From Promethearchaeota archaeon (GTDB lineage: Archaea > Asgardarchaeota > Lokiarchaeia > Sigyniarchaeales > SOKP01), in contig JAEOTS010000009.1 of assembly GCA_016839745.1 (NCBI GenBank), forward strand, positions 9,507 through 73,506: a stretch of 64,000 nucleotides of DNA. Direction: 5' to 3'. Under the pieces are notes generated by a model. The model was given only the letters and a program-made list of their open reading frames with translations. It ran no database searches and had not been told where the DNA came from. Below, one piece after another: positions 2,463 through 64,000 of this stretch (position 1 is the stretch's first letter; every line of letters begins with the position of its first letter). Position numbers and translations under genes: made by a program.

Positions 2463-2668
2463 ATTAATTCTTAAAAAACTTATCTAAATAAATATACGAT
2501 TTTTCCCTTTAGTTTTTAGTATTCAATATTTAAGATTATGTAAAAAGGCAAAAATTTTAACCGTATATATTATGAATCAAATAGAGAAATCAATCTCCTC
2601 TATACTTATGATAAAAAAATAAAAATGAAGAAAATTTTATATTAAGGATTCGTTTAAATCTACGAATT

Positions 2669-41421: not shown

Positions 41422-42351
41422 TTAGTTTCCGATAATATCCTTTAACTTGGGAAAGATTCGGGGATAATGCACCGCCATGCAATGGATCCCTGCTAGGAGG
41501 TTTTTACTTCGTAATTCTGATATGAATGGTTTGAAGAAATCATAATTATATTGATCGTATAATTTTTTCTGCTCCTTTTTATCAGTGACTTCTTTTTTAA
41601 CGTTTTTCCACTTAGCTAAGATTTCTTTAGGGACGCTAACGCCAGGTACAAAAGTATCGAAACCTTTAGCAATTCCATATGACTTCATTGGAAATATTCC
41701 AAGTAATATCGGCACTTTATACTTCTTGATTTCTGTTAAAAACTCTATAGTACGATCGAGGTCGTAAACAACTTGAGTTTGGATAAATTCACAACCCGCT
41801 TCTGCTTTTCTACCTATTTTTAATATTTCTGCGCCCATTGGTTCAGCATTAGGATTTGCAGCCGCCCCAACATGTAAAGTTGGAGGTGCTTCGATCTCGT
41901 TACCGTTAATAGAACCTTTATCAACCATTTCCCTCACTAACTTTACCAGCGTTGCGGAATCAAGATCAAAAACAGGTTTTGACTCGGGCATATCGCCTAA
42001 AGCTGTGTGATCGCCTGTTAGAGAAAGAACATTGCGTATCCCTAGAGCGTGCGCGCCCATTATCATTCCCGCAATTCCTAACTTATTAACATCCCTTACA
42101 GTCATTTGCCAAACGCATTCTAAACCGGCAGCTTTTTGAATTAAATGCGTTGCAGCCATAGAATTTATTGTTACAATGCCTAAGGGACTATCTGTCACAT
42201 TTGCAGCAATAACATAGGGGGCCATTTCTTTAGCTTCATGGATAGTGTGAGAGAGATCCGTTGTTTTTTCAGGCTCAAGTTCACCTGTTAATATAAATTC
42301 ACCCTTCGCGATGGCCTCTCCTAATTTGGAATAAGTTTTTACTTCTGTCAT
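41422..42351 (-). CDS. metF: methylenetetrahydrofolate reductase, MetF (copy 1)
   Basis: Collinear with the second MetF at 51266..52204 (FILTGELEPEK, ANVTDSP, LSLTGDH, VGAAANPN, FIQTQ). I prefer the ATG at 42349..42351, which has GGAGGT about 10 nt upstream, over the track TTG at 42369. Confidence 0.85.
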   Translation of the reverse strand: MTEVKTYSKLGEAIAKGEFILTGELEPEKTTDLSHTIHEAKEMAPYVIAANVTDSPLGIVTINSMAATHLIQKAAGLECVWQMTVRDVNKLGIAGMIMGAHALGIRNVLSLTGDHTALGDMPESKPVFDLDSATLVKLVREMVDKGSINGNEIEAPPTLHVGAAANPNAEPMGAEILKIGRKAEAGCEFIQTQVVYDLDRTIEFLTEIKKYKVPILLGIFPMKSYGIAKGFDTFVPGVSVPKEILAKWKNVKKEVTDKKEQKKLYDQYNYDFFKPFISELRSKNLLAGIHCMAVHYPRIFPKLKDIIGN

Positions 42352-42359
42352 TTTCACAT

Positions 42360-43031
42360 TTACCTCCAAACTATCTCTCTTTGATGACCGATCTTACTCC
42401 AATCCAATGGGTCTCTTAATTTTGAAAATAAGTCTAAACGGCCTAACTCTTTTAGGCGATTATATATCGTTATCCAACCGCAGTCTTTCTCATAATCACC
42501 CACTTCACATTTTCCATCCACCATACCTCCACAAGGTCCATTCATAAGCGCTTTAGCGCAAGTTGTGACTGGACAAATACCTCCAGTTTCGTTTAACAAA
42601 CAATCGCCACACCCTTTGCAACGCATATAGAAACGTCCGATGCGTTCTGTCATTCCTATAAACTCAGTGTTATTAGCCGTGAAAACGGGTATTTCTGGAT
42701 GAGATTTCGTAAGAACTTCAATAATCGATTGTACCCCTAAACCACAGGCTAATGTTAAAATACCGTCTGAGTTTTTAACATCCTCATCAATCTTGCGTAA
42801 ATCTTTTTTCATCACACGGTTATCACAAACATCCTCGCTCACTATTGCATTAGTAACATTAAATCCCCTTTCTTTTAGTTTTTCCGACCATTCCTCAGCT
42901 CCTTCACTCCCCCCAGTTTGACAGAGAGCTGCGCAAACCCCACAGCTCACGACTAATATATTTTTTACTTTATAATTGTTAAGAGCTTCAAAAACCTCTT
43001 CTTCCGGTTTTTTCGTTGTTATTACAACCAT
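42360..43031 (-). CDS. metV: MetV, zinc/Fe-S-type partner subunit of MetF (methylene-THF reductase C-terminal-domain protein)
   Basis: The Cys-rich block CKGCGDCLLNETGGICPVTTCAKALMNGPCGGMVDGKCEV is characteristic of acetogen MetV. Confidence 0.85.
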   Translation of the reverse strand: MVVITTKKPEEEVFEALNNYKVKNILVVSCGVCAALCQTGGSEGAEEWSEKLKERGFNVTNAIVSEDVCDNRVMKKDLRKIDEDVKNSDGILTLACGLGVQSIIEVLTKSHPEIPVFTANNTEFIGMTERIGRFYMRCKGCGDCLLNETGGICPVTTCAKALMNGPCGGMVDGKCEVGDYEKDCGWITIYNRLKELGRLDLFSKLRDPLDWSKIGHQREIVWR

Positions 43032-44908: not shown

Positions 44909-46396
44909 TTATTGTATTAAAGTGGGAAGAATTTTTGCTAATGGAACAGCTAGACCACCTAGTAAAGAACCAATAGAAGTCAGTTTTTTCAAATAATCCT
45001 TCATGTTTTTAGTTACTTTTATAGTTCTCGTTTTTCCCTCAATAATGGTGCCATCAGAGGACATTAAAAAGATTTGAATTGTTTGTTCTCCCGTTTCTCT
45101 TGGCTCTAAAGTTAACCAAGTTGTATCTCCATTTTCTAGCATAGTTGACAATACACCTGCAATGTCAGTACTTTCAGAAGAGATTAAAGGAATGGATTCA
45201 TTCGGAATTAAAAAGCTTCCTCTCCCTTCGACTTTGATATCCAACTTTAATTTGCTAGGTTCGAAACCAGGGGCGACTACCTTTATAGCGTAATTCTTAT
45301 CCTCAGGAGCATTATTATAAAGAAAAACAAAAATATTTAACTCCGAATTCAAATAAACGACTTCCTGTGCTGAAGAATCCATATATATTGGATCTTTTGA
45401 AAGACGTTCAATGTTATCAGCGAGTTCTAATTGAAGCCTATCGATGATGTTAAAAAAACCAGGATTGAATTTTTTAATGTAATTGAATAATTTATAGATA
45501 TCAGAAGTAGAGAAGTACCACAAACCGTCAATTAACAATCCCTTTTTGACATCAAAAGAAACAGAATCTACATTAATTACTTCTTTTAATTCACGAGTAA
45601 ATTGTTCATCGGTTAAAACGCCTTGAAATCGCAAATAATATAAGAATAAGATCGATTCAATTCCAAAAGTTAATGGTAATTCATCTTCCTCGGCTTCTTT
45701 CACCTTTTGAATAAAGGACGGTGTTAAAATTTTTTCTATTCCTAGTAAGTATTCGTCCCATTTAAGATATGTAACCGGATCCAAATGATCTGCAAATACT
45801 TCAGCAAAAAAATTATCAAGAAAAATTTGATGAGTTGTGGGCTTATAGAAATCTTGAAGACCATTTACATCGTGAATATTTAGGTTTAAACTCCTAATAA
45901 TAATCGCTAATCCTAACCCTATTAACGCAAATCCTGCTGCTGCGAATCCTAAATTCAGATCTCCGAGTAATAACATTACCAAGAACAAAATTAAAGCAAT
46001 AAAACATATTGTGGCAATAATCTTTAGCAGGTTAACAACTCGTTTAACGCTTGAAAACAACATTTCAAAACCATCAAGGCTGTCTATTGGTCTCCCTCTC
46101 TTTCTTTCAAATTTTAATCTTAATTTAAGAGAAGAATTTGTCGAATTTGCACCTAAAAATAGCATTATTGAATTAAAGGCATATATACCTAATATCACGA
46201 AAAACACAATTTTTAACGTGAAATCCAACGCTGAAATAAAAGCTAGAATGGTTACTATTAGCAGAAGAATAGGAAGAATGAACAGTAGAACTTTGCCAAA
46301 TCCAGATACGTACTTAACCATTTTGCCTTGAAATCGTTCCTTTTTACTTATTTTAGATAAGTCTTTTTCTAATTCTCTTTCCATTTTATAATTCAT
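44909..46396 (-). CDS. hypothetical membrane protein (four TM helices plus a soluble C-terminal region)
   Basis: 495 aa with no recognisable motif. Confidence 0.5.
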   Translation of the reverse strand: MNYKMERELEKDLSKISKKERFQGKMVKYVSGFGKVLLFILPILLLIVTILAFISALDFTLKIVFFVILGIYAFNSIMLFLGANSTNSSLKLRLKFERKRGRPIDSLDGFEMLFSSVKRVVNLLKIIATICFIALILFLVMLLLGDLNLGFAAAGFALIGLGLAIIIRSLNLNIHDVNGLQDFYKPTTHQIFLDNFFAEVFADHLDPVTYLKWDEYLLGIEKILTPSFIQKVKEAEEDELPLTFGIESILFLYYLRFQGVLTDEQFTRELKEVINVDSVSFDVKKGLLIDGLWYFSTSDIYKLFNYIKKFNPGFFNIIDRLQLELADNIERLSKDPIYMDSSAQEVVYLNSELNIFVFLYNNAPEDKNYAIKVVAPGFEPSKLKLDIKVEGRGSFLIPNESIPLISSESTDIAGVLSTMLENGDTTWLTLEPRETGEQTIQIFLMSSDGTIIEGKTRTIKVTKNMKDYLKKLTSIGSLLGGLAVPLAKILPTLIQ

Positions 46397-48837: not shown

Positions 48838-49551
48838 GTGTTAACTTTATTTGGTTGGATAGATGGGATTACTGCGTCTGGAGTTGTTATTTTTGGTTTC
48901 ATTTTTGGATTTTTCTTCTTATATAAAGCGCGTAAGTCCAGTGCTAAGATTTTATCTGTTTTAGGAATAGTAAATATTTTAGCTGGGCTTATGTATTTAG
49001 GGGTTTTTACAGATTTCTTAGTAGTTCTGGTAACAGAAACTAACCTGGATAATACTTACGGCTTAGTTGGGATTTTAAGTTATATATGGTTCGCTCCAGT
49101 AATAATACTTGCTCTCTATATCGGTGCTGAACTCTTGATACCCAAAAGAAAGTGGTATCTCATGTTTATCATCGTTGTTATATGTATATTATTTGAAATT
49201 CTTTTCTTCTTAGACCCATTGGGTACATTTAATTTTGTCCCTCCACCAGAAGTTCCACCAACAGGAGAATTATTAATTGATTACAATGTAAATATGTTTA
49301 CACCAGCTGGAATAATAATGGCAATATTATTACTCGCGGTCCTAATTATTCTTGGATTTGGTTTTTTAATAAAGAGCTTTCAGTCTTCAGGCGTATTAAG
49401 GAAAAAATTCTTTTTCTTATCAATGGGATCGATCTGTTTTTGCATATTTGGACTATTAGAGGGTTTAACAGAACCCGGATTTATGGTAATTTTCGTAAGG
49501 CTCGGTTATCTCATTAGTTTTTGGCTGATGTATTATGGTCTAAAAGATTAG
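48838..49551 (+). CDS. hypothetical multipass membrane protein
   Basis: 237 aa with a GTG start preceded by GAGGG. About 7 hydrophobic helices. Confidence 0.55.
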   Translation: MLTLFGWIDGITASGVVIFGFIFGFFFLYKARKSSAKILSVLGIVNILAGLMYLGVFTDFLVVLVTETNLDNTYGLVGILSYIWFAPVIILALYIGAELLIPKRKWYLMFIIVVICILFEILFFLDPLGTFNFVPPPEVPPTGELLIDYNVNMFTPAGIIMAILLLAVLIILGFGFLIKSFQSSGVLRKKFFFLSMGSICFCIFGLLEGLTEPGFMVIFVRLGYLISFWLMYYGLKD

Positions 49552-51265: not shown

Positions 51266-52204
51266 CTAAAAATTCTTTAATAATGGCTCAAAAAGCCTTT
51301 CGTAGTGAACGGCCATGCAATGAATGCCCGCAGCCTTAGTAGTTTTCTGGATTTCTCTTATAAACGGTTCAAAAAAATCAATATTAATTTTATCGATAGC
51401 TTGATTCCGTTTTTTCTTATCTTCTTTGAATTCCTTTTTTACACTTTTTAAAGCGCTCAAAAGATCCTTTGGAACTGAAACACCAGGGATGTACTCGTTA
51501 AAATACCAAGCAATTCCATAATTTTTTATAGGAAATAATCCCAGCAAAACAGGAACATTGAATCTTTCTAATTCTTTTAAAAATTCCTTGGCATCATCTA
51601 TATCAAAAGATGTTTGAGTTTGAATGAAATCAGCACCAACTTCTACTTTTCTTCCTACTTTAAGGATTTCAGGTTCTCTGGGGTTTGAATTTGGATTAGC
51701 GGCGCATCCCACATTCATTTCGATTTTCCCACCTTCAATTTCGTTTCCCTCTAAGTCAGTACCATCATCTACCATTTTAGAAACGAGATCGATTAATTGT
51801 GTAGAGTCTAAATCATATACTGCTCTTGCATTTTTATTATCTCCTAACGCTGAATGATCTCCTGTCAAAGCTAAAAGGTTTCTCAATCCAAGAATCGAAC
51901 CTCCTAAAATATCACCAAATAAAGCAATCCTATTCCTATCTCTAACGGTTATCTGCCAGATGGCTTCTAGCCCTACTTTTTCTTGAACTAAATGGCATGG
52001 TACCAAAGAGCAAGTGTAAGCGTCTCCTTGTGGTCCATCAGTTACATTAGCCGCAGTAATCTTTCCCGTTTTCTTCATTTCTTCTGCGGAATGCAGAATG
52101 GAGGATAAATCAACCATCTTTTTCGGCTCCAATTCACCAGTGAATAAAAATTTGCCTTCTTTCATTGTTTTTACTAAATTACTATATGCTGGTCTTTTTG
52201 CCAT
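51266..52204 (-). CDS. metF: methylenetetrahydrofolate reductase, MetF (copy 2)
   Basis: 312 aa, collinear with copy 1 (FLFTGELEPKK, ANVTDGP, LALTGDH, VGCAANPN, FIQTQ). GGAGGAG lies upstream of the ATG. Confidence 0.85.
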   Translation of the reverse strand: MAKRPAYSNLVKTMKEGKFLFTGELEPKKMVDLSSILHSAEEMKKTGKITAANVTDGPQGDAYTCSLVPCHLVQEKVGLEAIWQITVRDRNRIALFGDILGGSILGLRNLLALTGDHSALGDNKNARAVYDLDSTQLIDLVSKMVDDGTDLEGNEIEGGKIEMNVGCAANPNSNPREPEILKVGRKVEVGADFIQTQTSFDIDDAKEFLKELERFNVPVLLGLFPIKNYGIAWYFNEYIPGVSVPKDLLSALKSVKKEFKEDKKKRNQAIDKINIDFFEPFIREIQKTTKAAGIHCMAVHYERLFEPLLKNF

Positions 52205-52207: not shown

Positions 52208-52906
52208 TTAATTCTCCTCCTTTTGTGGTTCAGTTTCTTCGTTTGTGAACGTTTTATTTATCTCTATGAATCTGGGGCTACTCCATAGCTGATAATTTCT
52301 TGGCGGACGATACTTATTAAAGAGATCAAGCCTATTGAATTTCCTAAGACGTTCATAAATCTTTATCCAGGCACACTCATGTATATATCCACCAACTTCG
52401 CATTTACCATTAACTGTACCTCCACACGGTCCATTACTCAAGTTTTTAGCACAACCTGCCATAGGACATACTCCACCAGTAACCCCTAGTAAACACTCTC
52501 CACAAGTTTCACAGTATTCAGCAAAATTATTTTCAGCGTTATTTTCTGCTCCTCCAAACATACTATTTTGGGCTGGATAAGTAATAATGTTTTCGAATAT
52601 TCTATTCATCATAACAACTCCCAAACCGCAGGATAGAGATACAATTGCATCATAATGCTCAACAAACGGTCGAACAGTTGTTGCTGCGATTCTATCGTCA
52701 CATTGTCTGAGTACAGTTATAGCTTTCCATGTTAATTCCTTCCCCTCGCTCCTTGCTTTTAATTCTAGCATCTGTGCTAATACTTTTGCCTCGTTGATAG
52801 AGCGAGGAGGTTGACAGCAGCCGTCACATCCAGCTACTAAAATCTTCGAATACGGTTTTATCATCTCGTAAATTTCTTCAATATTTTTCTGTTGCGTGAT
52901 TATCAT
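52208..52906 (-). CDS. metV: MetV partner subunit (copy 2)
   Basis: CETCGECLLGVTGGVCPMAGCAKNLSNGPCGGTVNGKCEV. The gene ends 3 nt before metF copy 2. Confidence 0.85.
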   Translation of the reverse strand: MIITQQKNIEEIYEMIKPYSKILVAGCDGCCQPPRSINEAKVLAQMLELKARSEGKELTWKAITVLRQCDDRIAATTVRPFVEHYDAIVSLSCGLGVVMMNRIFENIITYPAQNSMFGGAENNAENNFAEYCETCGECLLGVTGGVCPMAGCAKNLSNGPCGGTVNGKCEVGGYIHECAWIKIYERLRKFNRLDLFNKYRPPRNYQLWSSPRFIEINKTFTNEETEPQKEEN

Positions 52907-52937: not shown

Positions 52938-55900
52938 TTATTCTGATATTTTAATTGATTTACTTTTATTTTCTAATTCAATTGATCCTAATTTTTTTAT
53001 TCTTTCGACGAATTCTATCATCGTATCAGAGAATATTTTACCTTCGCTGGCAGAAATCCATTTACGCAAAAATCTATCAGGATTAATCCCTATGGATTCG
53101 AGTTCTGATTCAATTTCATTTGTTCTTCTCAAAGTATCTTGATTTCCAGCAATGTAATGACAATCTCCGATATGACATCCTCCTACGAAAACTCCATCTG
53201 CACCCTCTAAAAATGCTTGTAATATGAGGCTCTTAGATAATCCTCCAGAACACATCACTCTTATCGTTCTAACATTAGGCGGGTATTGGTATCGACTTAC
53301 TCCAGCTAAATCTGCGCCGGCATAACTGCACCAATTGCATAAGAATGCTATGATTCTTGGACGTCCGTTTCCGAATTCAACGCGTGCTGCTTCAGCTATC
53401 ATTGGTTCAATCTGAGAGGTTCCAAAATGGCTCATTGTAATTGCTTCAGCAGGGCACTCAGCGGCGCAGTCCCCACATCCCTTACACAACAAGGGGTTTA
53501 CTTCGGAGATCATTTTACCTTCTTCATATTTTACTCCAACGGCTCCGTAGTTACAAACTTCAGCACATCGATTACAACCTATGCATAGTGCTGGATTAAC
53601 TTTTGAAATTACACCTTCTGTTACTAGGATATCCTTAGATAAAATTGTAGTCGCTCTCGAAGCTGCTGATAATGCTTGAGCGATACTTTCGCTGATCGTA
53701 GCAGTTCCACGGGCTGTACCACATAAGAATATACCATCAGTTGCGAAATCTGAAGGTCTTAGTTTCACATGCGCCTCCAAAAAAAAGTTGTCACTATTTG
53801 TAGGTACTTTTAGCATTTTCGCTAATTTTTCATTTTCTTCTCCATCAGAAACAATACCGGCGCTTAATGCTATTAAATCGGAATTAATAGACAAATTGCC
53901 TAATTTTGGTGTTTCTATTTTTACACTTAATTTTCCGCTATCTTGAACGATTTCTGGGGGTTTTTCATGATTAAATCGAATGAAAACAATTCCTTTTTCC
54001 CTTGCTAAGTTGTAATACTTTTCCTTAAATCCATAAGTTCTTATATCCCTGTAAATAACTACAATATTTAATTTTGGATTAACTTCTTTTGCTTTTATTG
54101 CGTTTTTAATAGCTTCAGCACAACACATTCTGCTACAATAGGGGTGTTCTTCGTTTCTAGAACCAACGCACTGTATCATTACTAATGTGTTTACTCCCTC
54201 GATTTTTTCAGGATTCGTATAAAGAATATTTTCTAATTCAGATTGCAAAATTACTTTATCATTTTTCCCAAAAAGAAATTCTCCTTCTTTTGGTTGATAT
54301 TCGTGAGCACCGGTAGCTACGATTATGATTCCATGCTGAAATTCCGTTGTTTCTTTATCATTACCAAAAGTAATATTTGTCGTGAAATTACAGACATATC
54401 CACCAATTGAATTGATTTTACCATTAAGAAAAACATTAATGAGTTTATGTTCATTAACTTTTTTGATTAAATCCGAAATATGTTCTTGAACATCGTAATT
54501 TTCAATTGTTTGATGTATATTTTTAGAAAAACCACCAAGTTCATTGCTTTTTTCAATGAGAAACACTTCAAATCCTTGATTTGCTAAGTTAAGCGCTGCC
54601 GTCATTCCTGCTACACCCCCGCCAATCACCATTCCTTTATGTATTACGGGTACTTCTTGTTCTTGTAATGGTATTAAATTACGAGCTTTTGCGATTGCCA
54701 TCCTAACCAAGTCTTTAGCTTTTTCTGTGGCTTCTTTTGGCTCATGCATGTGTACCCATGAGCATTGATCTCGAATATTAGCCAAATCAAAAAGATATTT
54801 GTTCAACCCGGCTTCCCTAATTGTTGCTTGAAATAATGGTTCGTGCGTTCTAGGTGTGCATGAAGCAACTATCACTCGATTTAAGTTAAACTCTTTAATT
54901 TTTTCTTTAATATTTGTTTGGGTATCAGCTGAACAAGTATATAGGTTTCTTTCAGCATAACTTACATCTGGTAATTTACTTGCATAGTCAACAACGTCAG
55001 CAACATCAACAACACCTGCAATATTAATTCCACAATGACACACAAAAACTCCAATTCGGGGAGGTTCCCCAATAGTATCAATTTCTCTCGGGAGTTTTTT
55101 TTCAGTAATTAAGGTATTTCTAGCTTCAGACAATAAAATATTAACAGCTCCAGCTGCTGCACTTGCTTCAACCACAGTTTCTGGAATATCTTTTGGCTCT
55201 GAAAACATCCCACAAACATAAATTCCTTCTCGAGAGGTTTCTACAGGAGAAAATGGTTTAGTCTTACAGAACAATTCTTCGTTCAAATCAATCTTTAATT
55301 TTATCGCTAACTCTTGAGTACTAAGATTTGGCATCGCCCCTACTGCTAAAACTACTAAATTAAAAATGTCTTCAATTATCTTCCCATCTTCAGACTCATA
55401 ACTAAGGATTAAATCGTTCGATTCTGAAACCTCTTTCACGGCTGAAATTCTACTTCGGATATATTTTACTCCGTATTCTTCTTGAGCACGATCAATATAC
55501 TTATCAAAATCTTTTCCACATGCTCTAATATCCATTGAAAAAATGGTAGGTTGAACAATTGGCATATGTTCCTTAGCAATTACTGCTTCTTTAGCAGTAT
55601 ACATGCAACAAACAGATGAACAATATTCGCCACCATGTTTTTTATCTCTTGAACCTACACATTGCAAGAATGCAATTTTTTTAGGGATTATCCCATCTGA
55701 TGGCCTAAGAATAAGACCCGAATGCGGACCACTTGCACTCAATATACGCTCGAATTGAATACTCGTGACAACATTGGGATATTTTCCAAAACCATAATGC
55801 TGTGTAGATGCTGGATCATATTCATCAAATCCAGGTGCTAGAATTACAGCCCCTACATTAAGTGTAGTCTTTTTATCTTTAAGGGTATAATCGATGGCTT

Positions 55901-56399
55901 TAGCTTTACATACACCCTTACAAAATCCACACCCTATACATATATCTTGATTAATAGAAAACACTAAAGGAACAGCTTGAGGGAATTTAACGGATATCGC
56001 CGCTCTTTTTGAGAGACCTTCATTAAAGAAGTCAATTGCTTCTACTGGGCATTCTTGAGCACATACACCGCAACCAGTACATGTTTCTTGATCTAAAAAC
56101 AACGATTGTTGCTTTAGCTCAACTTTGAAATTACCTGGCTTTCCCGTAATTTTTTCGAGAGTAGTATTAATTAAAAGGTTGATATTTTCATGGCGTCCTG
56201 CGGCAACCAATTTTGGCGCGAGGATACAAATGGCACAATCATTAGTTGGAAAGGTTTTATCTAGCTGGGACATCACACCTCCAATACTCATTGTTGATTC
56301 TGCTAAATATACTTTATAACCAGAGTCACCCAAATCCATTGAAGCTTGTATACCTGCTATTCCGCCTCCAATAACTAAAACCGAGCCCACTTTTTCCAT
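52938..56399 (-). CDS. fused HdrA-like / HdrA / MvhD polyprotein (heterodisulfide-reductase subunit A-type flavoprotein with a C-terminal MvhD domain)
   Basis: 1153 aa. FAD motif VLVIGGGIAG with LDKTFPTNDCAICILAPK and an inserted ferredoxin. Then the HdrA N-domain IGVFVCHCGINIAG, a second FAD motif MVIGGGVAGMTAA, CVGSRN..YCSRMCC and a C-terminal 2x[4Fe-4S]. Then the MvhD block FLCNWCSYAGADLAGVSR..VMCSG. Confidence 0.85.
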   Translation of the reverse strand: MEKVGSVLVIGGGIAGIQASMDLGDSGYKVYLAESTMSIGGVMSQLDKTFPTNDCAICILAPKLVAAGRHENINLLINTTLEKITGKPGNFKVELKQQSLFLDQETCTGCGVCAQECPVEAIDFFNEGLSKRAAISVKFPQAVPLVFSINQDICIGCGFCKGVCKAKAIDYTLKDKKTTLNVGAVILAPGFDEYDPASTQHYGFGKYPNVVTSIQFERILSASGPHSGLILRPSDGIIPKKIAFLQCVGSRDKKHGGEYCSSVCCMYTAKEAVIAKEHMPIVQPTIFSMDIRACGKDFDKYIDRAQEEYGVKYIRSRISAVKEVSESNDLILSYESEDGKIIEDIFNLVVLAVGAMPNLSTQELAIKLKIDLNEELFCKTKPFSPVETSREGIYVCGMFSEPKDIPETVVEASAAAGAVNILLSEARNTLITEKKLPREIDTIGEPPRIGVFVCHCGINIAGVVDVADVVDYASKLPDVSYAERNLYTCSADTQTNIKEKIKEFNLNRVIVASCTPRTHEPLFQATIREAGLNKYLFDLANIRDQCSWVHMHEPKEATEKAKDLVRMAIAKARNLIPLQEQEVPVIHKGMVIGGGVAGMTAALNLANQGFEVFLIEKSNELGGFSKNIHQTIENYDVQEHISDLIKKVNEHKLINVFLNGKINSIGGYVCNFTTNITFGNDKETTEFQHGIIIVATGAHEYQPKEGEFLFGKNDKVILQSELENILYTNPEKIEGVNTLVMIQCVGSRNEEHPYCSRMCCAEAIKNAIKAKEVNPKLNIVVIYRDIRTYGFKEKYYNLAREKGIVFIRFNHEKPPEIVQDSGKLSVKIETPKLGNLSINSDLIALSAGIVSDGEENEKLAKMLKVPTNSDNFFLEAHVKLRPSDFATDGIFLCGTARGTATISESIAQALSAASRATTILSKDILVTEGVISKVNPALCIGCNRCAEVCNYGAVGVKYEEGKMISEVNPLLCKGCGDCAAECPAEAITMSHFGTSQIEPMIAEAARVEFGNGRPRIIAFLCNWCSYAGADLAGVSRYQYPPNVRTIRVMCSGGLSKSLILQAFLEGADGVFVGGCHIGDCHYIAGNQDTLRRTNEIESELESIGINPDRFLRKWISASEGKIFSDTMIEFVERIKKLGSIELENKSKSIKISE

Positions 56400-56401
56400 T
56401 T

Positions 56402-57172
56402 TTATCCCCCCAAAATTGATATAAATGTTGGAATTTCTTCATTTATTTCAGAAACATCGACTAAACCTCTTGCCCTTAGAACAACTATGTGCTCTAACAC
56501 CTCGCTCGCTTTAATACCAATCTCATTTGCTATAGTAGGGACAGATTTACCTTTCTCTTTTATTTTTATTATGATTTTATGACGAATAAATTCATTTCTA
56601 ACGACCTCGTCAATTAAATTTTCAAATTTCTCAACTGTAATTTGTTCGCCGTATACATTTTCTTCAGTTACTAATTCCCTTTGTCTTGCTATTAACCCTC
56701 TCAATCTAGAATCCTCTAATACATTTTTAACAGCTTGTAACGAATCTGTTATTTGTGCTTCTTTTTGTTTTTCTTTCATTGGAGATGGTCCTAATTTTTG
56801 TATATGATTAGTAAATTCCGATACAATTTGAGCGAATTTATTTCCTTCTGCCGCAGAAACCCAATCAAGACGCATTCGATTAGAAAAATTAACTAAACCT
56901 AATAATTTGCTTAAAGCTTTCATTTTAATTTCAGCTTCATAATTGCCAGTTAGGTAATGACAGTCTCCTAAATGACACCCTAAAACAATTACTCCATCAA
57001 TTCCATGGATGAAAGCATCTGCGACGAACGATGGATCTACTCTGCCAGAGCACATTACTCGAATGACTCTAATATTGGTCGGGTATTGAATGCGGCTAAC
57101 GCCCGCAAGATCTGCACCTGCATAGGAACACCAGTTGCATAAAAATCCTAAAATTTTTGGTTCAAATTTCAT
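56402..57172 (-). CDS. mvhD: MvhD-like protein (methyl-viologen-reducing hydrogenase delta-subunit domain) with a C-terminal winged-helix extension
   Basis: FLCNWCSYAGADLAGVSRIQYPTNIRVIRVMCSGRVD and GCHLGDCHY. Residues ~195-250 (SVPTIANEIGIKASEVLEHIVVLRARGLVDV) look like a wHTH. Its ATG directly abuts the hdrA stop. Confidence 0.85.
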   Translation of the reverse strand: MKFEPKILGFLCNWCSYAGADLAGVSRIQYPTNIRVIRVMCSGRVDPSFVADAFIHGIDGVIVLGCHLGDCHYLTGNYEAEIKMKALSKLLGLVNFSNRMRLDWVSAAEGNKFAQIVSEFTNHIQKLGPSPMKEKQKEAQITDSLQAVKNVLEDSRLRGLIARQRELVTEENVYGEQITVEKFENLIDEVVRNEFIRHKIIIKIKEKGKSVPTIANEIGIKASEVLEHIVVLRARGLVDVSEINEEIPTFISILGG

Positions 57173-58840
57173 TTAAACACCTCCTCCGTAAGCAAAAATT
57201 TCTGCTCGTATTTGATCCCCCGTAAAGTGATGGATAATTATTGCTTTTTTAGGACAACTTGCTCCACACAGTCCACATCCTTTGCAAACTACTTTATTAA
57301 CAATTGCAGTGTCTGTAATTTCATCTTTTGTAATAGCTTTATAGGGACAAATTTTTATGCAGGCTTCACATCCAATACATAATTCCTCTATAACTTCTGC
57401 GGTTGATCCTTCTACTTCTAAAGTATCTTTCCATAAAATTCTAGAAGCCCGCGAAGCCGCTGCATTAGCTTGACTAGTACTTTCGGCTATATCGGCGGGC
57501 CAATGCGCAGATCCGCACATAAAAATACCATCAGTTGCAAAATCTACGGGTCTTAGTTTCACATGAGCCTCTAAGAAGAAATTATTTTCTTCTAATGGAA
57601 CTTTAAGCATTTTCGCTAACTTATCTGAATCCTCATTTGCGATAAGCGGAGTAGATAAGACTACAAGATCCTGTGGTATTTCAATTTCTTGGTTTAGTGA
57701 GTCACTATATACCTTTACTACACCTTTCTTAATAATTGGAGGTTTTTCTGGTAAGTATTTAATGAATAAGATACTCATCTCTCTGGCTTTTCGATAATAT
57801 TTCTCATAAACCGTTCCAGATGCTTGAATATCTTGGAATAATATGGTTATATGAGCATTGGGATTTTTTTCCTTAATTAGCATGGCGTTTTTCATTGCAG
57901 TCATGCAACAAATATTGGAACAATATTTTCTTACTTCATTTCGACAACCAACACACAATATCATTGTAATGTTATTAGAACTAATTTGATCAGCCTTCAA
58001 TAATTTCTCCAAGTCCAATTGGCTAATTATGTTTTTTTTATTATATCCATACAAGCCATCTGGTGTTAAAGGAATTGCGCCAGTTGCTATAATAATTACC
58101 CCCGCGTCTATTTCGATGGTTTTATCGTTTTGTTTAACAGAAATTTTATAATTTCCAATGAAACCATCAACTTTTTCGATTACTGAGGATTTGTAAACTT
58201 TAATTTTTTCATGAGATTCGATTAAATCTAAAGTCTCTAATAACTTTGAAGCATCCTCATTACTGGGATATACTTTATTAAGGGATCTAAGGAGTCCCCC
58301 TAACTCTTTTTCTTTTTCAATTAACGAGACTTCAAATCCTTGATTGCCCAGGTTTAGAGCTGCGGTCATTCCTGCTATTCCACCACCTATTACAATAGCT
58401 GAAGGAGTGATCGACACTTTTATTCTTTCTAATGGTTCCAATAAAGCTGCTTTGTGAACGCTCATCCTAATAAGGTCCTTAGCTTTAATCGTTCCTTTTT
58501 CTGGCTCCTTCATATGAACCCAAGAGTCCTGGTCTCTAATATTTACCATTTCGAATAAGTAAGGATTTAGACCAGCTTCTTGGCATATGGCTCTAAATAA
58601 GGGTTCATGAGTTCTCGGAGAACAAGAAGCTACGATAACGCGATTTAACTCGTGTTCTTTTATATTTTCTTTAATTTCAGTCAATCCTACTTCGGAACAA
58701 GTATAAAGGTTATCCGCTGAATAGGTTACATTTGGTAATGTTTTAGCATATTCCGCTAAAGACGGAACATCTAATACACCGCCAATATTAGTCCCGCAAT
58801 GACATACAAATACCCCAATTCTAATATCTTCGTCTGTCAT
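57173..58840 (-). CDS. hdrA: heterodisulfide reductase subunit A-type flavoprotein
   Basis: 555 aa. N-domain IGVFVCHCGTNIGGVLDV, FAD motif IVIGGGIAGMTAA, CVGCRN..YCSNICC, FFLEAHVKLRPVDFATDGIF, and C-terminal CIGCEACIKICP / CKGCGLCGASCP. Confidence 0.9.
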   Translation of the reverse strand: MTDEDIRIGVFVCHCGTNIGGVLDVPSLAEYAKTLPNVTYSADNLYTCSEVGLTEIKENIKEHELNRVIVASCSPRTHEPLFRAICQEAGLNPYLFEMVNIRDQDSWVHMKEPEKGTIKAKDLIRMSVHKAALLEPLERIKVSITPSAIVIGGGIAGMTAALNLGNQGFEVSLIEKEKELGGLLRSLNKVYPSNEDASKLLETLDLIESHEKIKVYKSSVIEKVDGFIGNYKISVKQNDKTIEIDAGVIIIATGAIPLTPDGLYGYNKKNIISQLDLEKLLKADQISSNNITMILCVGCRNEVRKYCSNICCMTAMKNAMLIKEKNPNAHITILFQDIQASGTVYEKYYRKAREMSILFIKYLPEKPPIIKKGVVKVYSDSLNQEIEIPQDLVVLSTPLIANEDSDKLAKMLKVPLEENNFFLEAHVKLRPVDFATDGIFMCGSAHWPADIAESTSQANAAASRASRILWKDTLEVEGSTAEVIEELCIGCEACIKICPYKAITKDEITDTAIVNKVVCKGCGLCGASCPKKAIIIHHFTGDQIRAEIFAYGGGV

Positions 58841-58844
58841 TTTT

Positions 58845-60140
58845 TTATACCCTCATTACTGTCTCAGCTGCTTTAGCTGCTGCTCCACTTGCGTCTATTA
58901 CTGAATTTGGGATGTCCATTGGTTCTCTACAAGCCCCACAAAGGAAGATTCCTTCTTTGGTTGATTTTTGGGGATAGTAGGTCATCCCTTTGAAAAAATT
59001 AAATTCATCAAGCTTAATTCCTAAAATTTCTGACAATTTCACTGCGTCTTTATTTGGAATCATACTCGTTGCTAAAATAACTAAGTCAAATTGAAGTTCT
59101 TTCACTTCAAACGTGTTTATATCTTCATAAACAACAATAGGATTTTTTTGTTCGTCTTGTAAAATTTTTGCAACCTTTCCTTTAACATATTCAATTGCGT
59201 AATCTTCCGAACCTCTCTGAATATACTTTCGAAATCCTTTTCCACCGGCTCTTAGATCAATGTAAAATATCGATGTTTGAATTTCATTATCGTGTTCATA
59301 AGCGATCATAGCTTCTTTAGTTGTATACATACAACAACAAGAGGAGCAATAGGGATTATTTTTTAAGTCTCTTGAACCTACGCAATTAATAAACGCGAGT
59401 TTTTTTGGTTCTTTTTTATCGAAAGGCCTAATTAAATGCCCATCTAAAGGCCCAGAAGCGCAAATCAATCGTTCAAACTCTAACGAAGTTACAACATTAG
59501 GAAATCGTTCATACCCTAAGGAGATAATAGATTTAGGATTAAACACATCGTATCCTATAGCAGCTATGATCGATGCCACGTTTATTTCAATTTCCTTATC
59601 TTCCTGATCGAAATCTATTGCTTCTCTCTCACATGCTTTTTCACATAATCTACAAGCGGATTTCGTAAACCATAAGCATTTTTCTTTATCAATTGACATG
59701 ATGGCGGGAACTCCTTGAACATAATCAATAAAGATCGCTCTCCGCTTTCTTAATTGCATATCGAAATCGTCATCTACTCTCATAGGACATTTTTCAACAC
59801 ATAACCCACAATTAATACAAGCATCTTCTTTCACATACCGTGCATGGGTTAATACTTTAACCGTGAAATTACCAGCAGTCCCCTCAACTTTTTGGACTTC
59901 TGATAGTGTGCGAAGCGTAATATTTGGATGTCGAGAACATTCTGCAAGTTTTGGTGCTAAAATGCATATAGAACAATCGTTCGTAGGGAATGTTTTATCA
60001 AGCTGGGCCATTCTTCCTCCAATACACGCGTTTTTCTCTATTAAATCAACCTTTATACCTCTTTCAGCTAAATCTAATGAAGCTTGAATCCCAGCTATAC
60101 CTGCTCCAATAACCATAACGCTTTTTAACCTTCCGTCCAA
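58845..60140 (-). CDS. HdrA-like FAD/Fe-S oxidoreductase (FAD domain with inserted ferredoxin; lacks the HdrA N-domain and C-terminal ferredoxin)
   Basis: 431 aa with a TTG start and GGTGA 7 nt upstream. VMVIGAGIAGIQASLDL, LDKTFPTNDCSICILAPK, CINCGLCVEKCP, CVGSRD..YCSSCCCMY. Confidence 0.8.
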   Translation of the reverse strand: MDGRLKSVMVIGAGIAGIQASLDLAERGIKVDLIEKNACIGGRMAQLDKTFPTNDCSICILAPKLAECSRHPNITLRTLSEVQKVEGTAGNFTVKVLTHARYVKEDACINCGLCVEKCPMRVDDDFDMQLRKRRAIFIDYVQGVPAIMSIDKEKCLWFTKSACRLCEKACEREAIDFDQEDKEIEINVASIIAAIGYDVFNPKSIISLGYERFPNVVTSLEFERLICASGPLDGHLIRPFDKKEPKKLAFINCVGSRDLKNNPYCSSCCCMYTTKEAMIAYEHDNEIQTSIFYIDLRAGGKGFRKYIQRGSEDYAIEYVKGKVAKILQDEQKNPIVVYEDINTFEVKELQFDLVILATSMIPNKDAVKLSEILGIKLDEFNFFKGMTYYPQKSTKEGIFLCGACREPMDIPNSVIDASGAAAKAAETVMRV

Positions 60141-60573
60141 ATCTGTTCACCGTATATTATTTAAGGTTTTGTTATACGACTCGAAACTAAATTGCTACCG
60201 AGGATTTATTGAAAATTTCATTTTTAAGAAAAATTTTTTCTTATTAATTTAATTACTCTTAACATTTTCTAATGAATCGTTCAATAATATTATTAGAACC
60301 GATGATTCTATATAAAATTTTTATTAAAAAAAGTAAAAAAGTGTGGAATTATTGTGATAATCAATAAAAAAATGCGGAAAAAATCAATTTCCTCAAAAAA
60401 AATATAACTAATCAAGAAGAAATGTTATTTTTTTGTTTGATTTAATTTATTTAGAAGAATAATCTTATAATAGATGACGGTATTTTTATTAATAGTATTA
60501 AGATGTTTTAATTACAGAATGGACTACTATAAAACAAATTATTAGTGCAAAAGATAAATAAGAGTTAAGAATA

Positions 60574-61683
60574 ATGACTGAAAACGAAGTTAAACCTAAA
60601 TCCTTTGTAGATCTTATCAAAGAGGTTCACGAAAAAGGTATTTGTGGAGAATGTGGTGGATGTGTTAGTTTTTGTTCTGCTGCTGAAATAGGAGCCATTG
60701 ATATCTCTACAACGGGGTTACCCTATTATTCAAATGAAGAAAATTGCCTTCATTGTGGCATTTGCTATTTAATCTGCCCCGAAATTCACGAATTAGACGA
60801 AGAATTAAATGAGAGATTTAATTTTAAGCCCCCAATAGGTAATTGGTCTAAAATAGTAACAGCTCAAGCCAGTGATCCTCAGATACAAAAGTTTGCTACA
60901 GATGGTGGAGTGGTTACCGCAATATTGATTGCCTTATTAGAAAATAACTTAATTGATGCAGCGATTGTAGCAAAAAAAATAGGTCCCTTTCAAAGAACAC
61001 CTTTCTTTGCTAAAAATAAGCAAGATATCATAGACGCGATAGGAACAAACTATAACATAGAAGGTCCTGTTTCAGAGTTAGGAAAATACAACACTTTCGT
61101 TCCAACGATTACAGAATTAAAAAAAGTAGTTAGTTCTGATAAAATGAAAATAGCGGTTGTCGGAGTTCCATGCCAAATTCATTCCATAAGAAAAATGCAA
61201 GAGTTAAAAATAATTCCTGCTCATGTAGTCGAATACACATTGGGGCTATTTTGTTACGAGAATTTTAAATTTGACGACGCTGCTAGGGCGAGAATAGAAG
61301 AAAGATTTAATTTCTCTTTTAATGATATTGAAAAGATGAATATTAAGGAGAACTTAATTATAAATCTTAAAAACAAAGATGAACCACTGATAATAGAATT
61401 TTCAGATCTACAAGATATTATGAGACATGCGTGTAGAGTATGTGAAAATTTTACGAATTACTTCGCAGATATTTCTTTTGGGGGAATTGCATCGCAACAA
61501 GGATTAACCACCACTTTAATTCGTACTAAAGCTGGAGAGAAGATATACAAACTTGCTTTAAACAAAGGATATATTAACGAACCCAGCGATTCCAATACCT
61601 CTATCGAAAAATCGAAAATGATAGCTCAAATTATAAGCTTTAGTAAAAGAAAAGCTAATAGAGCAGAAGAATTTCAACCTTAA
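60574..61683 (+). CDS. FrhB/FdhB-family protein (coenzyme F420 hydrogenase/dehydrogenase beta-subunit-like) with an N-terminal ferredoxin domain
   Basis: 369 aa. CGECGGCVSFC and CLHCGICYLICP, DGGVVTAILIALLE, VGVPCQIHSIRK, CRVCENFTNYFADISFGG. Confidence 0.85.
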   Translation: MTENEVKPKSFVDLIKEVHEKGICGECGGCVSFCSAAEIGAIDISTTGLPYYSNEENCLHCGICYLICPEIHELDEELNERFNFKPPIGNWSKIVTAQASDPQIQKFATDGGVVTAILIALLENNLIDAAIVAKKIGPFQRTPFFAKNKQDIIDAIGTNYNIEGPVSELGKYNTFVPTITELKKVVSSDKMKIAVVGVPCQIHSIRKMQELKIIPAHVVEYTLGLFCYENFKFDDAARARIEERFNFSFNDIEKMNIKENLIINLKNKDEPLIIEFSDLQDIMRHACRVCENFTNYFADISFGGIASQQGLTTTLIRTKAGEKIYKLALNKGYINEPSDSNTSIEKSKMIAQIISFSKRKANRAEEFQP

Positions 61684-62034
61684 AATGAAATTTATTGTTT
61701 AGTTTTAAGTTTCTCTTTTTATTGGGAATCCATTTGGTGAAAATCCTTATAATACTCTGAATGACCTATAATGTTAAGATATAAACATATTTAAATGCTT
61801 AATTTTATTACTTAAATGACATTTATATACAATTTTGGGATATTGTAGACTTCATTTATTACGATAGAGAGAACAATGTGATTTTACGCAGAAGATAAGA
61901 GTCATATTATCCATATATTAATCCCAATTAAAAACTCATTTAAGTTAATGATCAAATAATAAACATCTATTGTAATAAGAGTCCGACGAAAGCTTTACTG
62001 GGAACAATTGGATTCAAAAAACGAGCAGTTCATC

Positions 62035-62715
62035 ATGAAAATAACAGTTTCGGGCCCAACACAGAGCGGTAAGTCAAGTTTCATTAAGTACTTTGACGAA
62101 AAAGCTTTGAATGTAGAGGCAAAAGCCAGAGACAACAAGTATTATACAGTTGGAATGGATTTAGGTAGCGTTAAATTAAATGGGTTTGATGTCTTCTTAT
62201 TTGGAACTCCTGGTTTATTAAGATTTAATGTTATGAGAGATGTTGTCGTGCGAGGAGCTGATGGTCTAATTTTTATATTTGATGCGGCTCACCCAGAAAA
62301 AGACGAAGATGCAATTATAATTTTAAATTCTCTTAGAAAGGTTCTAAGTCCCGATATACCAATAGTATATTTAGCAAATAAACAAGATGTTGCAGGAGCA
62401 CGACATGCCGAAGTAGTGAGGTCCCAGAATTATCTTCGTGAAGATTCAGTGATTTTTCCAACTAACACCAGAACAGGAGAAAACTTAGAAGAGGCGTTGA
62501 AATTTCTTGTGAATCGAATATACGATCATTATTCTTCGCTCCTCACAGTGCTCCGTTCATACGAAACAAACATAGAAGGTTTGCAAGAAAAGCTGAATAA
62601 GAATCCCGTTGAAATGAGAGATTTGTTAAATAACCTTGAAATAAAGAGATTTATTGAAGTTGACAGGATAAATAAAACCTATAAGGTAAAACATGGGTTA
62701 AAACTCTTAATATAA
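62035..62715 (+). CDS. small GTPase (MglA/CvnD-related, COG2229-like) with a C-terminal winged-helix-like extension
   Basis: P-loop GPTQSGKSS, G3 FGTPGLLRF, G4 NKQD. About 60 extra C-terminal residues (VEMRDLLNNLEIKRFIEVDRINKTYKV). The ATG at 62035 is preferred; the track ORF starts at an in-frame TTG at 62008. Confidence 0.75.
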   Translation: MKITVSGPTQSGKSSFIKYFDEKALNVEAKARDNKYYTVGMDLGSVKLNGFDVFLFGTPGLLRFNVMRDVVVRGADGLIFIFDAAHPEKDEDAIIILNSLRKVLSPDIPIVYLANKQDVAGARHAEVVRSQNYLREDSVIFPTNTRTGENLEEALKFLVNRIYDHYSSLLTVLRSYETNIEGLQEKLNKNPVEMRDLLNNLEIKRFIEVDRINKTYKVKHGLKLLI

Positions 62716-62724: not shown

Positions 62725-64000
62725 TTAAATTTGAGATAATTCTGAGGGTATTATTTCTTCTTTTCCGAATTTTTTTTGCATATCTATCAGATCATTTCTC
62801 TGCTTAAAGAGAACATCCCAGAAGAATTTTGGAATTTCCTTTTCTGCCTTGTACATCTCTTCCATACGGTTTAATTTATTAAGCAGAAAACTAATTCTAA
62901 GCGTGAATTGCTCGATATAATCCTCATGAGAATAATCTTGATTTAATTCTAACTTGAAAAGATTTTTCAAATCTTCATATTTCGGAAGATAACCAATTGG
63001 TGAATTAATAGCTTCGTAATCTCCTTTGGTGCGTCCTTCTGCCCATATAACCCATACTTTTTTATCTAAAATGCCATTTAAATAGTTTCCATCCTTTCCT
63101 TTAAGAAAGTAGTTCGTTGAAAATACTTGGGGACAATGCTTCAATTGGTGGCCAAATTTTTGGTGGTTTTTTAGATATTTACCTAGTGGGACAACCAAGA
63201 AATCGAGATTTGCCATTGGGCTAGCTTTTCTAACGCCGACAGCACCAAGAGTTGCGGTTGTTGTTTCAGATTCGATAATAGCCCCTAAAAAAATTCCATG
63301 CTCCCAATTAATGCTTTCCACTACGGGAGGCATTGTATCTGAATCCCTTCCGCCGTAAAATATTCCGTGGATTGGTACTCCATCAGGATCTTCTAATTTA
63401 GGATCACAATTAGAAAGATCCATAAGGTTAATTGTATATCGAGCATTTGGGTGGGCGTGGGTTACTTTATTACCGTTTTTATCGGTCATTCCATCAATCC
63501 AGTCACCATAATGATTAAAGCCATCTTTGGGATGATCTACACCCATTCCAATCCAATAGGGTTTACCATCTTTTACGAGAACGTTAGAATAAATTAATTC
63601 TCTTGGAGAAGTAAGCGCTTCGTAAATCACTGGATCGTTTTTTGCGTTTACATCTTTAATAATTCCAAAAATTCCCTTCTCTATGTTGACGGCGTGAGCA
63701 AAACCATCTTTCCACGAACGTAAATATGCAATATCATCCCCTACAATCAGTTGTCCGGGAAGCATCGCAGTTGATGTTTTTCCGCAAGCACTTGGAAAAG
63801 CTCCGGTAAAATAGGTTACTCGATTTTTTCCTTTCGGGCGAACTCCTAATATAAAATAATGTTCCGTGAGCCAATCTTCATTATTTGCTTTATGTATTGC
63901 TAAGCGTAAGGCTAATTTTTTTAATCCAAGAGAATTTCCGGCATATTGGTTATTAACAGTCAATACTCGCCCTTCTTGTAAATCAACAAATATTCTACGT
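62725..64000 (-). CDS. pckG: phosphoenolpyruvate carboxykinase (GTP), N-terminus beyond the window edge
   Basis: Kinase-1a motif FPSACGKTS and YAGNSLGLKKLALRLA. The track start at 63963 is an internal TTG, and the frame stays open to base 64000. Confidence 0.9.
   Translation of the reverse strand, partial: RRIFVDLQEGRVLTVNNQYAGNSLGLKKLALRLAIHKANNEDWLTEHYFILGVRPKGKNRVTYFTGAFPSACGKTSTAMLPGQLIVGDDIAYLRSWKDGFAHAVNIEKGIFGIIKDVNAKNDPVIYEALTSPRELIYSNVLVKDGKPYWIGMGVDHPKDGFNHYGDWIDGMTDKNGNKVTHAHPNARYTINLMDLSNCDPKLEDPDGVPIHGIFYGGRDSDTMPPVVESINWEHGIFLGAIIESETTTATLGAVGVRKASPMANLDFLVVPLGKYLKNHQKFGHQLKHCPQVFSTNYFLKGKDGNYLNGILDKKVWVIWAEGRTKGDYEAINSPIGYLPKYEDLKNLFKLELNQDYSHEDYIEQFTLRISFLLNKLNRMEEMYKAEKEIPKFFWDVLFKQRNDLIDMQKKFGKEEIIPSELSQI

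Follow-up and report, generated by a model that had tools for sequence, protein, structure and literature searches.

In the (MvhAGD-HdrABC)2 complex of Methanothermococcus thermolithotrophicus (5ODC), HdrA is a symmetric homodimer whose chain of 654 residues carries all four domains, and the idea that HdrA may be a heterodimer of complementary halves has already been published as well. Here we describe a locus of a Promethearchaeota archaeon of the class Lokiarchaeia, lying in a stretch of 64,000 nucleotides (assembly GCA_016839745.1, contig JAEOTS010000009.1, positions 9,507 to 73,506 of the forward strand) that we call the window and from whose first letter all positions are counted. Two consecutive HdrA-MvhD modules are encoded here, followed by the genes for MetV and MetF; the first module consists of three genes (the HdrA halves A and B and the adaptor C), and the second is a single fusion of the same three parts. 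Judging from the sequences, we consider it probable that the system consists of two ancient paralogous modules, each an asymmetric HdrA dimer with its MvhD, and that it is an Hdr-type electron-bifurcating reductase of methylene-tetrahydrofolate or methylene-tetrahydromethanopterin (methylene-H4F/H4MPT). In comparison with 5ODC, each cofactor site of HdrA occurs once per A and B pair, and the MvhD domains of the window match chain 5odc_D, but the HdrA domains are split over two non-identical halves. Since they are shared out in this way, only one complete bifurcation path would be expected for each pair.

Chadwick et al. (2022; PMC9012536) describe tandem (HdrA5/6 and HdrA12/13) and fused (HdrA3/4) paralogues in anaerobic methanotrophic (ANME) archaea, in which Cys197 and the N-terminal domain (N-domain) are complementary, put forward the hypothesis of a heterodimer, and point out the same pattern in the MetFV-HdrABC-MvhD enzyme of Moorella. 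The modules of the window show this complementarity too. The ANME fusions of this paper start with the N-domain half, whereas the Cys197 half comes first in the window, and MetF is given there as not found in the HdrA clusters of ANME-1, whereas the window operon has it; a long MvhD and a rule of two modules are not part of its account as far as the text was consulted. The HdrA proteins of Moorella thermoacetica and Sporomusa ovata, which were dissected by Kremp et al. (PMC9430772), are similar in layout (PMC9430772; PMC9012536), with an extra thioredoxin-reductase (TrxR) half followed by a half of MvhD-like N-domain, TrxR and C-terminal ferredoxin, i.e. in the order A then B, and with MvhD, MetV and MetF in the gene set. 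Their HdrCB is present in two sister operons of the one described here (loci L084 and L086 of the sample below) but absent in the window. Moorella and Sporomusa have one HdrA-MvhD module, whereas the window operon has two, with MvhD fused to the second; the HdrA of Sporomusa has no inserted ferredoxin, which the A halves of the window keep, and that of Moorella has a GltD/NAD(P)H insertion which the window lacks.

BamE and BamF of the class II benzoyl-CoA reductase of Geobacter metallireducens have been described in a preprint based on cryo-electron microscopy (10.64898/2026.04.10.717634). In BamE an HdrA dimer is fused into one protein, and both of its TrxR domains bind flavin adenine dinucleotide (FAD); the bifurcating FAD is in the N-terminal, CxxC-bearing TrxR1 with Lys280, and the second FAD, with Gln768, is non-bifurcating. 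Electrons enter through the clusters of the C-terminal ferredoxin, the high-potential exit is the TrxR-domain cluster, and electrons of low potential leave by the cluster of the N-domain and by the inserted ferredoxin domain (10.64898/2026.04.10.717634). Going by this description, the likeness to the window extends to the inserted ferredoxin, the C-terminal ferredoxin, the TrxR-domain cluster and the cysteine pair of the N-terminal half (Cys59-Cys62 there, Cys55/58 and Cys56/59 here). The partners differ, being the tungsten enzyme BamBC, BamD and BamGHI on one side and MetVF with an FrhB-like protein on the other; where BamE has Gln768 at the second FAD, the B modules of the window keep a Lys, and where BamE forms a homodimeric core, the window operon has two different modules of which one is split. 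Double-HdrA-MvhD fusions in Loki- and Thorarchaeota are on record in a survey of gene fusion and fission (PMC11237513); we found no paper describing a split-plus-fused MetVF operon of the present kind.

Two HdrA halves share the work in each module

Six closely packed open reading frames (ORFs) run along the minus strand from 60140 to 51266 in the order A, B, C, fusion, MetV, MetF. A (58845..60140, 431 residues) has a TrxR-like FAD domain with an inserted ferredoxin; B (57173..58840, 555 residues) has an MvhD-like N-domain for a [4Fe-4S] cluster, a TrxR-like FAD domain and a C-terminal ferredoxin; and the adaptor C (56402..57172, 256 residues) is an MvhD/FlpD domain with a C-terminal extension. 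The second module, A-B-MvhD, is a single ORF of 1153 residues (52938..56399). MetV (52208..52906, 232 residues; Pfam PF12225, DUF5981, E 4.7e-30) is the iron-sulfur subunit of a MetVF-type methylenetetrahydrofolate reductase (MTHFR), and the last gene of the operon is MetF of the MTHFR family (51266..52204, 312 residues; Pfam PF02219, E 6.2e-31, with NCBIfam matches). The positions of A, B, C and the fusion are exactly those of a first-pass annotation made by a model from the letters alone, and all the peptides which it quoted were found in the translations. The gaps between the six genes are 4, 0, 2, 31 and 3 nt: A and B are 4 nt apart with a change of frame, the ATG of C directly abuts the stop codon of B, C and the fusion are separated by 2 nt, and MetV starts 31 nt past the end of the fusion. 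Because of this spacing, and of the TAA stop codons at all three boundaries inside the duplicated unit, we regard the six genes as one operon.

The same annotation had claimed that the 1153-residue ORF is collinear with the three genes upstream of it, which pairwise BLASTP bears out: residues 3-411 of the fusion align with 4-416 of A (43% identity, E 3e-121), 445-1001 with 4-548 of B (49%, E 1e-164) and 1014-1153 with 5-143 of C (48%, E 1e-44). Such collinearity is far beyond chance. A and B show a weak mutual likeness, about 32% over parts of the flavin domain.

For the domain anatomy, the sequence of 5ODC chain A was rebuilt from phmmer alignments and the four modules (split A, split B, fused A and fused B) were aligned to it; HdrA numbering is that of 5ODC. 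By Pfam, A, B and the fusion have Pyr_redox/FAD folds together with ferredoxin motifs, and phmmer against the PDB divides the fusion between the parts of HdrA, with residues 7-362 matching HdrA 143-498 (the TrxR domain with its inserted ferredoxin), 447-617 matching HdrA 1-171 (the N-domain) and 857-1002 matching HdrA 498-639 (the end of TrxR and the C-terminal ferredoxin). The matches of the PDB sequence search were limited to canonical HdrA, MvhD and sHdr-like chains. Within the fusion, the A part (residues 1-420, 55140..56399, minus strand) has Cys55/Cys58, the inserted ferredoxin and the flavin pair E217/K270, and the B part (residues 447-1002, 53394..55061, minus strand) is delimited by BLASTP against B, phmmer and ligand mapping.

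The sets of cluster ligands are distributed over the halves as follows. The N-domain cysteines Cys11/13/46/71 are found in split B (C13/15/48/73) and fused B (C454/456/489/514) and in neither A. The pair Cys194/Cys197 is found in split A (C56/59) and fused A (C55/58) and in neither B, the TrxR-like domain of split B having KVYPSNEDAS in place of the CxxC pair. The inserted 2x[4Fe-4S] ferredoxin with its eight cysteines is present in both A modules and absent in both B modules, the C-terminal 2x[4Fe-4S] ferredoxin, also with eight cysteines, is present in both B modules and absent in both A modules, and the [4Fe-4S] cluster of TrxR, with Cys386/399/403/404, is present in all four. The GxGxxG...E dinucleotide fold is likewise retained by all four TrxR modules, as are residues equivalent to E356 and K409. 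Smaller differences are an Asp at the position of HdrA Cys103 in split B, where fused B has a Cys (C546), and an insertion of five residues in the second ferredoxin motif of split A. The mapping onto 5ODC and the phmmer division of the fusion thus make A and B strictly complementary halves, as the first-pass annotation had said when it called them degenerate halves of HdrA, with the Cys pair and the inserted ferredoxin left to A, and with the N-domain and the C-terminal ferredoxin left to B, which has no Cys pair in either its split or its fused form.

The complementarity holds throughout the family. Cys194/197 are present in 53/53 fused A modules and in 23 of the 25 split A modules (the other two are gapped there), but in none of the 79 B modules. 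E356 and K409, which according to Kremp et al., citing Appel et al. 2021, are the signature of the bifurcating HdrA flavin (PMC9430772), are present in 78/78 A modules and relaxed in the B modules (E in 67/79, K in 63/79). A canonical HdrA has all four domains on one polypeptide, whereas A and B each carry a partial set, and the NCBIfam HdrA equivalog gives scores of 372 and 404 against a cut-off of 1400; the fusion passes the HdrA2 'exception' model alone (1169.6 against 1100), and does so through the sum of three stretches. What the pairs have is the make-up of an asymmetric HdrA dimer of the BamE kind: two TrxR/FAD domains, complementary accessory domains and Cys197. Each module is thereby the equivalent of a canonical HdrA homodimer in which the work is divided between two halves. 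By analogy with BamE, and with 5ODC as described in PMC9012536, A and B would physically form an HdrA-like pseudodimer, in which the N-domain cluster may be completed across the interface.

The two modules also differ in their MvhD. The MvhD/FlpD domain of C (residues 1-135, 56768..57172, minus strand; Pfam FlpD, PF02662, E 2.4e-51), in which a [2Fe-2S] cluster is expected, and the short MvhD domain at the C-terminus of the fusion (residues 1013-1141, 52977..53363, minus strand; Pfam FlpD, E 3.4e-49, as well as BLASTP against C and phmmer) are both members of the MvhD/FlpD family, and five cysteines of this domain are conserved between them in the BLASTP alignment. A model of C compared with 5odc_D by Foldseek gave a target-normalised TM-score of 0.85. 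C alone has a C-terminal extension of 121 residues (136-256; 56402..56767, minus strand, stop codon included), which has no counterpart in the MvhD of the fusion. This tail is strongly conserved in the Asgard homologues, and a recognisable homologue is present in bacterial long MvhD proteins, as far as Desulfobacterota. In the AlphaFold models (pLDDT 79 for C and 78 for the tail) a helical hairpin and then a unit of three helices come after the MvhD fold. Pfam gives weak matches of the tail to HTH_20/HTH_40 (E about 2-4e-3, below the cut-offs), a profile search returned 450 proteins, some of which have recorded MarR_2 matches or regulator-like names, and the top matches of a fold search with the tail alone were all winged-helix proteins, at non-significant values (E >= 0.3); with the full model of C, the MvhD domain dominated the matches. 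The tail thus looks like a winged-helix-like domain behind a helical hairpin. It resembles BamF, which by its description is an MvhD more than 100 residues over the usual length with a winged helix-turn-helix, and this domain of BamF docks a donor module (10.64898/2026.04.10.717634).

Age and distribution of the split and fused modules

Relatives were collected with A as query, one genome per species, which gave at least 80 loci (L numbers) from many phyla; this is a query-biased sample and no census. ORFs were called, modules were labelled by BLASTP, and trees of the A and B modules were made by neighbour-joining with bootstraps and rooted on canonical HdrA. The relatives of the window are Promethearchaeota/Lokiarchaeota with 84-95% identity. 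Relatives of the fusion are abundant in Asgard archaea, with lengths of about 1153 (A-B-MvhD), 1013 (A-B) and 1648 residues, the last with an extra NfnB/GltD-like part. In P0044-P0058, Asgard proteins of about 1640-1650 residues, there are PF14691 and extra NAD-binding folds, and these extra domains resemble the insertion of GltD/NfnB type described for the HdrA of Moorella.

The order A, B, long MvhD, fused A-B, with the last MvhD free or fused, is found in the Promethearchaeota loci L002, L003, L005, L006, L008, L083, L084 and L086, and also in Bathyarchaeia (L004, L032) and Thermoplasmata (L025). Split and fused sets are adjacent also in an ANME-2 archaeon (L074, with A, B and the fused A-B gene within one cluster), a Cloacimonadota bacterium and several Desulfobacterota. 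In another layout the first module is fused too (fused A-B, long MvhD, fused A-B, MvhD); it is found in L026, L035, L042, L043 and L085. Counted over the 31 split-type B genes, a fused A-B gene lies within 6 kb on the same strand in 24, is absent in one, and the remaining six are near a contig end, and in 19/19 informative loci, archaeal and bacterial, the gene directly after the long MvhD is a fused A-B gene. In four deltaproteobacterial loci (L031, L061, L065 and L080) in-frame TGA codons, probably for selenocysteine, stand in two places, at the Cys197 position of the A modules (FPTNDCxM*) and within the long MvhD (G*HxGDCHY); they cause gene callers to break these genes up, and are confined to the deltaproteobacterial relatives.

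In the trees the split A of the window clusters with split A modules of Lokiarchaeia and Bathyarchaeia (bootstrap 85), and its fused A with other fused A modules of Lokiarchaeia (bootstrap 100). In the B tree all 24 split B modules of that part form a split-only clade (bootstrap 59) and 52 fused B modules a fused-only clade (bootstrap 41), values which give the deep nodes moderate support. The split and fused copies of the window are never grouped together. Ratios of nonsynonymous to synonymous substitution (dN/dS), calculated against L003 and L083 and with dS near saturation, are 0.05-0.09 for every gene of both sets, so that both are under strong purifying selection.

Two other explanations of the split and fused states were weighed. 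One is an artefact of assembly or frameshift, in which the three genes are one broken fused gene, or one of the sets is a decaying pseudogene; only the tight spacing of the genes speaks for it. The boundaries near 58841..58847 and 57170..57175, on which the first-pass annotation had made its claim depend, are genuine, with clean TAA stops and a shift of frame at the A/B junction. The lengths of A, B, C and fusion (about 431, 552-557, 249-257 and 1152-1161 residues) are near-identical in the independent assemblies L002, L003, L084 and L086, as are those of B, C and fusion in L083, whose sequence ends before A, and these gene boundaries recur in at least nine independent assemblies. With every cluster ligand intact and the low dN/dS of both sets added to this, we regard an artefact as next to impossible. 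Read-through or selenocysteine insertion joining the split genes was also considered, and is ruled out by the TAA stops and the frame change between A and B. The other explanation is a recent duplication in which one of the copies has newly fused or newly split, the locus showing a single unit in its two states. It would account for two sets that are adjacent, collinear and in the same order, but identities of merely 43-49%, the separation of split A from fused A in the tree (bootstraps 85 and 100), the same tandem in several phyla, and a genome with two split-plus-fused clusters on a single contig (GCA_011364925.1, with L008 and with L083, which is syntenic with the window) make it highly improbable. 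The first-pass annotation had spoken of a pseudo-heterodimeric HdrA captured in both states side by side, and had proposed module phylogenies for dating the duplication relative to the fusion. Its heterodimer of complementary halves stands, as something already published, but the capture does not, since the copies of the window pair with their counterparts in other genomes and not with each other. The identities, the trees, the recurrence of the tandem in several phyla and the dN/dS point to old, maintained and non-redundant paralogues, and not to a fusion in progress.

Operon partners and natural variants

The double module is met with varied partners. These are HdrC/HdrB and FrhB, with a PyrK-like NAD(P)H module after them, in L008, HdrCB and the MvhGA hydrogenase in L032 and L028, and an HdrD-like protein in L002 and L085; MetVF is the partner in the window, in L003, L083, L084 and L086, and in the bacterial loci L043 (Chloroflexi) and L061 (deltaproteobacterial). 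MetV and MetF come after the fusion in the window, L001, L003, L083, L084 and L086, and after HdrCB in L024. Next to the A end of the first module, or not far from it, there is an FrhB-like gene in the window, L003-L006, L008, L084 and L086; in the window it encodes an iron-sulfur flavoprotein of the FrhB/FdhB type (FrhB/FpoF-like by Pfam and NCBIfam, 369 residues, 60574..61683, plus strand) and is divergent from A. FrhB thus tends to travel with the first module and MetVF with the second.

In L084 and L086 the order is PEPCK (phosphoenolpyruvate carboxykinase), GTPase, FrhB (divergent), HdrC, HdrB, A, B, C, fusion, MetV, MetF, AsnC, and hdrC and hdrB stand just upstream of A, past a spacer similar to that of the window. 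By sequence, these operons correspond to the hdrCBA-mvhD-metVF set of Moorella and Sporomusa, except that the HdrA-MvhD module is there twice. In the window, the AT-rich spacer between FrhB and A (60141..60573) has no remnant of hdrCB, and tblastn found no HdrB, HdrC, HdrD, MvhA or MvhG in the 64 kb; the sole weak match to HdrC, at about 28.6-28.9 kb, is a generic ferredoxin-domain protein distant from the cluster. The window therefore has MetF and MetV with HdrA and MvhD, as in an Hdr-type MTHFR, and lacks the HdrB and HdrC of such a cluster, and L003 is likewise without HdrCB.

In some loci one of the modules is met without the other at its side. Ahead of the fusion gene of L001 there is a chimeric ORF of 94 residues (9704-9988), in which the N-terminus of HdrC is joined to the middle of a long MvhD; its two parts are 77% identical to residues 3-50 of the L084 HdrC and 64% identical to residues 44-90 of C, and one cysteine of the HdrC motif has already been replaced. 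In this Lokiarchaeial lineage a single deletion has thus taken out hdrC'-hdrB-A-B-'C, of which the ORF is the scar, and FrhB is missing too, while the fusion and MetVF are still in place. In L024 one fused module is accompanied by HdrCB and MetVF, and a split set stands without an adjacent fused gene in L023, with complete flanks, and in L007 and L017, with short flanks. The deletion in L001 and the single module of L024 mean that the modules are separable.

A candidate electron-bifurcating methylene-H4F/H4MPT reductase

Given the genes present, the system is likely to be an Hdr-type reductase of methylene-H4F/H4MPT that works by flavin-based electron bifurcation. The wiring proposed here is modelled on the published descriptions of the HdrA and BamE structures. 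Electrons would arrive at the FAD of A and be bifurcated there. The high-potential electron would leave through the TrxR-domain cluster to MetV and MetF, which would reduce methylene-H4F or methylene-H4MPT, and in the sister genomes it would probably pass through HdrCB. The low-potential electron would first cross the cluster in the N-domain of B, which the Cys pair of A would complete, and then go by way of A's inserted ferredoxin to ferredoxin. Confurcation, with the reaction reversed, may also take place. For the electron input of the first module the likeliest candidate is the FrhB-like neighbour, as a donor from F420H2 or a similar hydride carrier; genes for the biosynthesis of F420 have been reported in Lokiarchaeota (PMC8498797). 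A physical interaction of MetVF, HdrA and MvhD has been found by pull-downs in Sporomusa (PMC9430772). That A would be the bifurcating half fits BamE, because E356 and K409 are invariant in A and relaxed in B. We had considered B as the catalytic half as well, and dropped this after the description of BamE and the finding that the pair is invariant in A modules alone.

Several points weigh against this reading. The anatomy, the conservation, the selection and the gene associations are shown by the sequences, whereas the formation of complexes is inferred, as are the wiring, the direction and the substrates, which are taken from homology. The B modules of the window also keep the Glu/Lys pair, and the sequence therefore does not settle which FAD is the bifurcating one. 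As HdrB, HdrC, HdrD and the Mvh hydrogenase are all absent from the window, the route from HdrA to MetV is hypothetical, and the interaction between MetVF and the Hdr proteins in Sporomusa was a loose one (PMC9430772). The modules are separable in nature, as seen in the deletion of L001, the single fused module of L024 and the lone split set of L023. For the age of the modules, the trees are neighbour-joining trees with modest deep bootstraps (41-59%), and the 80 loci, having been picked for their resemblance to A, do not amount to a census free of bias.

It is a question of its own whether the two modules work together. They could be two independent enzymes in one operon, with FrhB, A, B and the long MvhD as one oxidoreductase, the fusion and MetVF as a separate Hdr-type MTHFR, and no common complex. 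The varied partners of the double module (HdrCB, Mvh hydrogenase, PyrK-like NAD(P)H module, MetVF), and the loci where one module stands alone, speak for this: L001 with its fusion and MetVF after the loss of the first module and of FrhB, L024 with HdrCB and MetVF, and the split sets of L023, L007 and L017. The distance of 2 nt between C and the fusion, the fused A-B gene directly after the long MvhD in 19/19 informative loci, the fused neighbour within 6 kb of 24/31 split-type B genes, and the BamE/BamD core of the benzoyl-CoA reductase, a dimer of fused HdrA dimers, speak for a common particle, and we think two separate enzymes rather unlikely. The opposite extreme is that the split module, the long MvhD and the fused module form one obligate heteromeric assembly, a dimer made up of two asymmetric HdrA dimers, and that this core is conserved from the Asgard archaea as far as Desulfobacterota. 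In such a double core, the tail of the long MvhD would dock the second module or a second donor, and the two linked flavin sites could couple more than three redox partners (F420H2 or H2, ferredoxin, methylene-H4F/H4MPT, and the substrate of HdrCB where it is present). We found no description of a heterologous double HdrA core in the searchable literature, and put it forward tentatively, as a possibility that we would not yet rely on.

Further genes were noted in the surroundings of the operon. About 9 kb downstream there is a second MetV/MetF pair (41422-43031, minus strand), with a MetF that shares 50% identity with the first one; behind the pair come a 3-hydroxyacyl-CoA dehydrogenase and a flavoprotein resembling dihydrolipoamide dehydrogenase (Lpd) at 40044-41234 and 38409-39935, both on the minus strand; in L002 the same Lpd-like gene and a MetF adjoin the fusion gene. 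A homologue of CdhD, the delta subunit of the CO dehydrogenase/acetyl-CoA synthase, lies at 17929-19077 (minus strand), and three acyl-CoA dehydrogenase paralogues at 21-3964, so that genes for the Wood-Ljungdahl pathway and for fatty-acid or amino-acid oxidation share a neighbourhood. On the other side of the operon, a small GTPase (62008-62715, plus strand) of the Ras/Arf/Roc kind that Asgard archaea typically have separates the FrhB-like gene from a GTP-type PEPCK (62725-63963), and the synteny of PEPCK, GTPase and FrhB is also found in L084. The window further has an Eco57I-type restriction-modification methylase whose specificity domain is TaqI-like (36441-38321, minus strand). Six ORFs of 237-681 residues (5441-7486, 10577-11884, 13072-14505, 34243-35298, 44909-46396 and 48838-49551) had no Pfam match at the thresholds used.

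Asymmetric HdrA modules represent a little-characterised form of flavin-based electron bifurcation. What is new here is that a pair of one split and one fused module is widespread and stable, that it can be recognised by a long MvhD whose tail is winged-helix-like, and that it has natural variants with and without HdrCB, with and without the first module and with varied partners, which suggest which of the subunits cooperate. For Lokiarchaeia, relatives of the eukaryotes, the operon suggests a way in which the Wood-Ljungdahl pathway's methylene-H4F/H4MPT reductase step may be driven or reversed.

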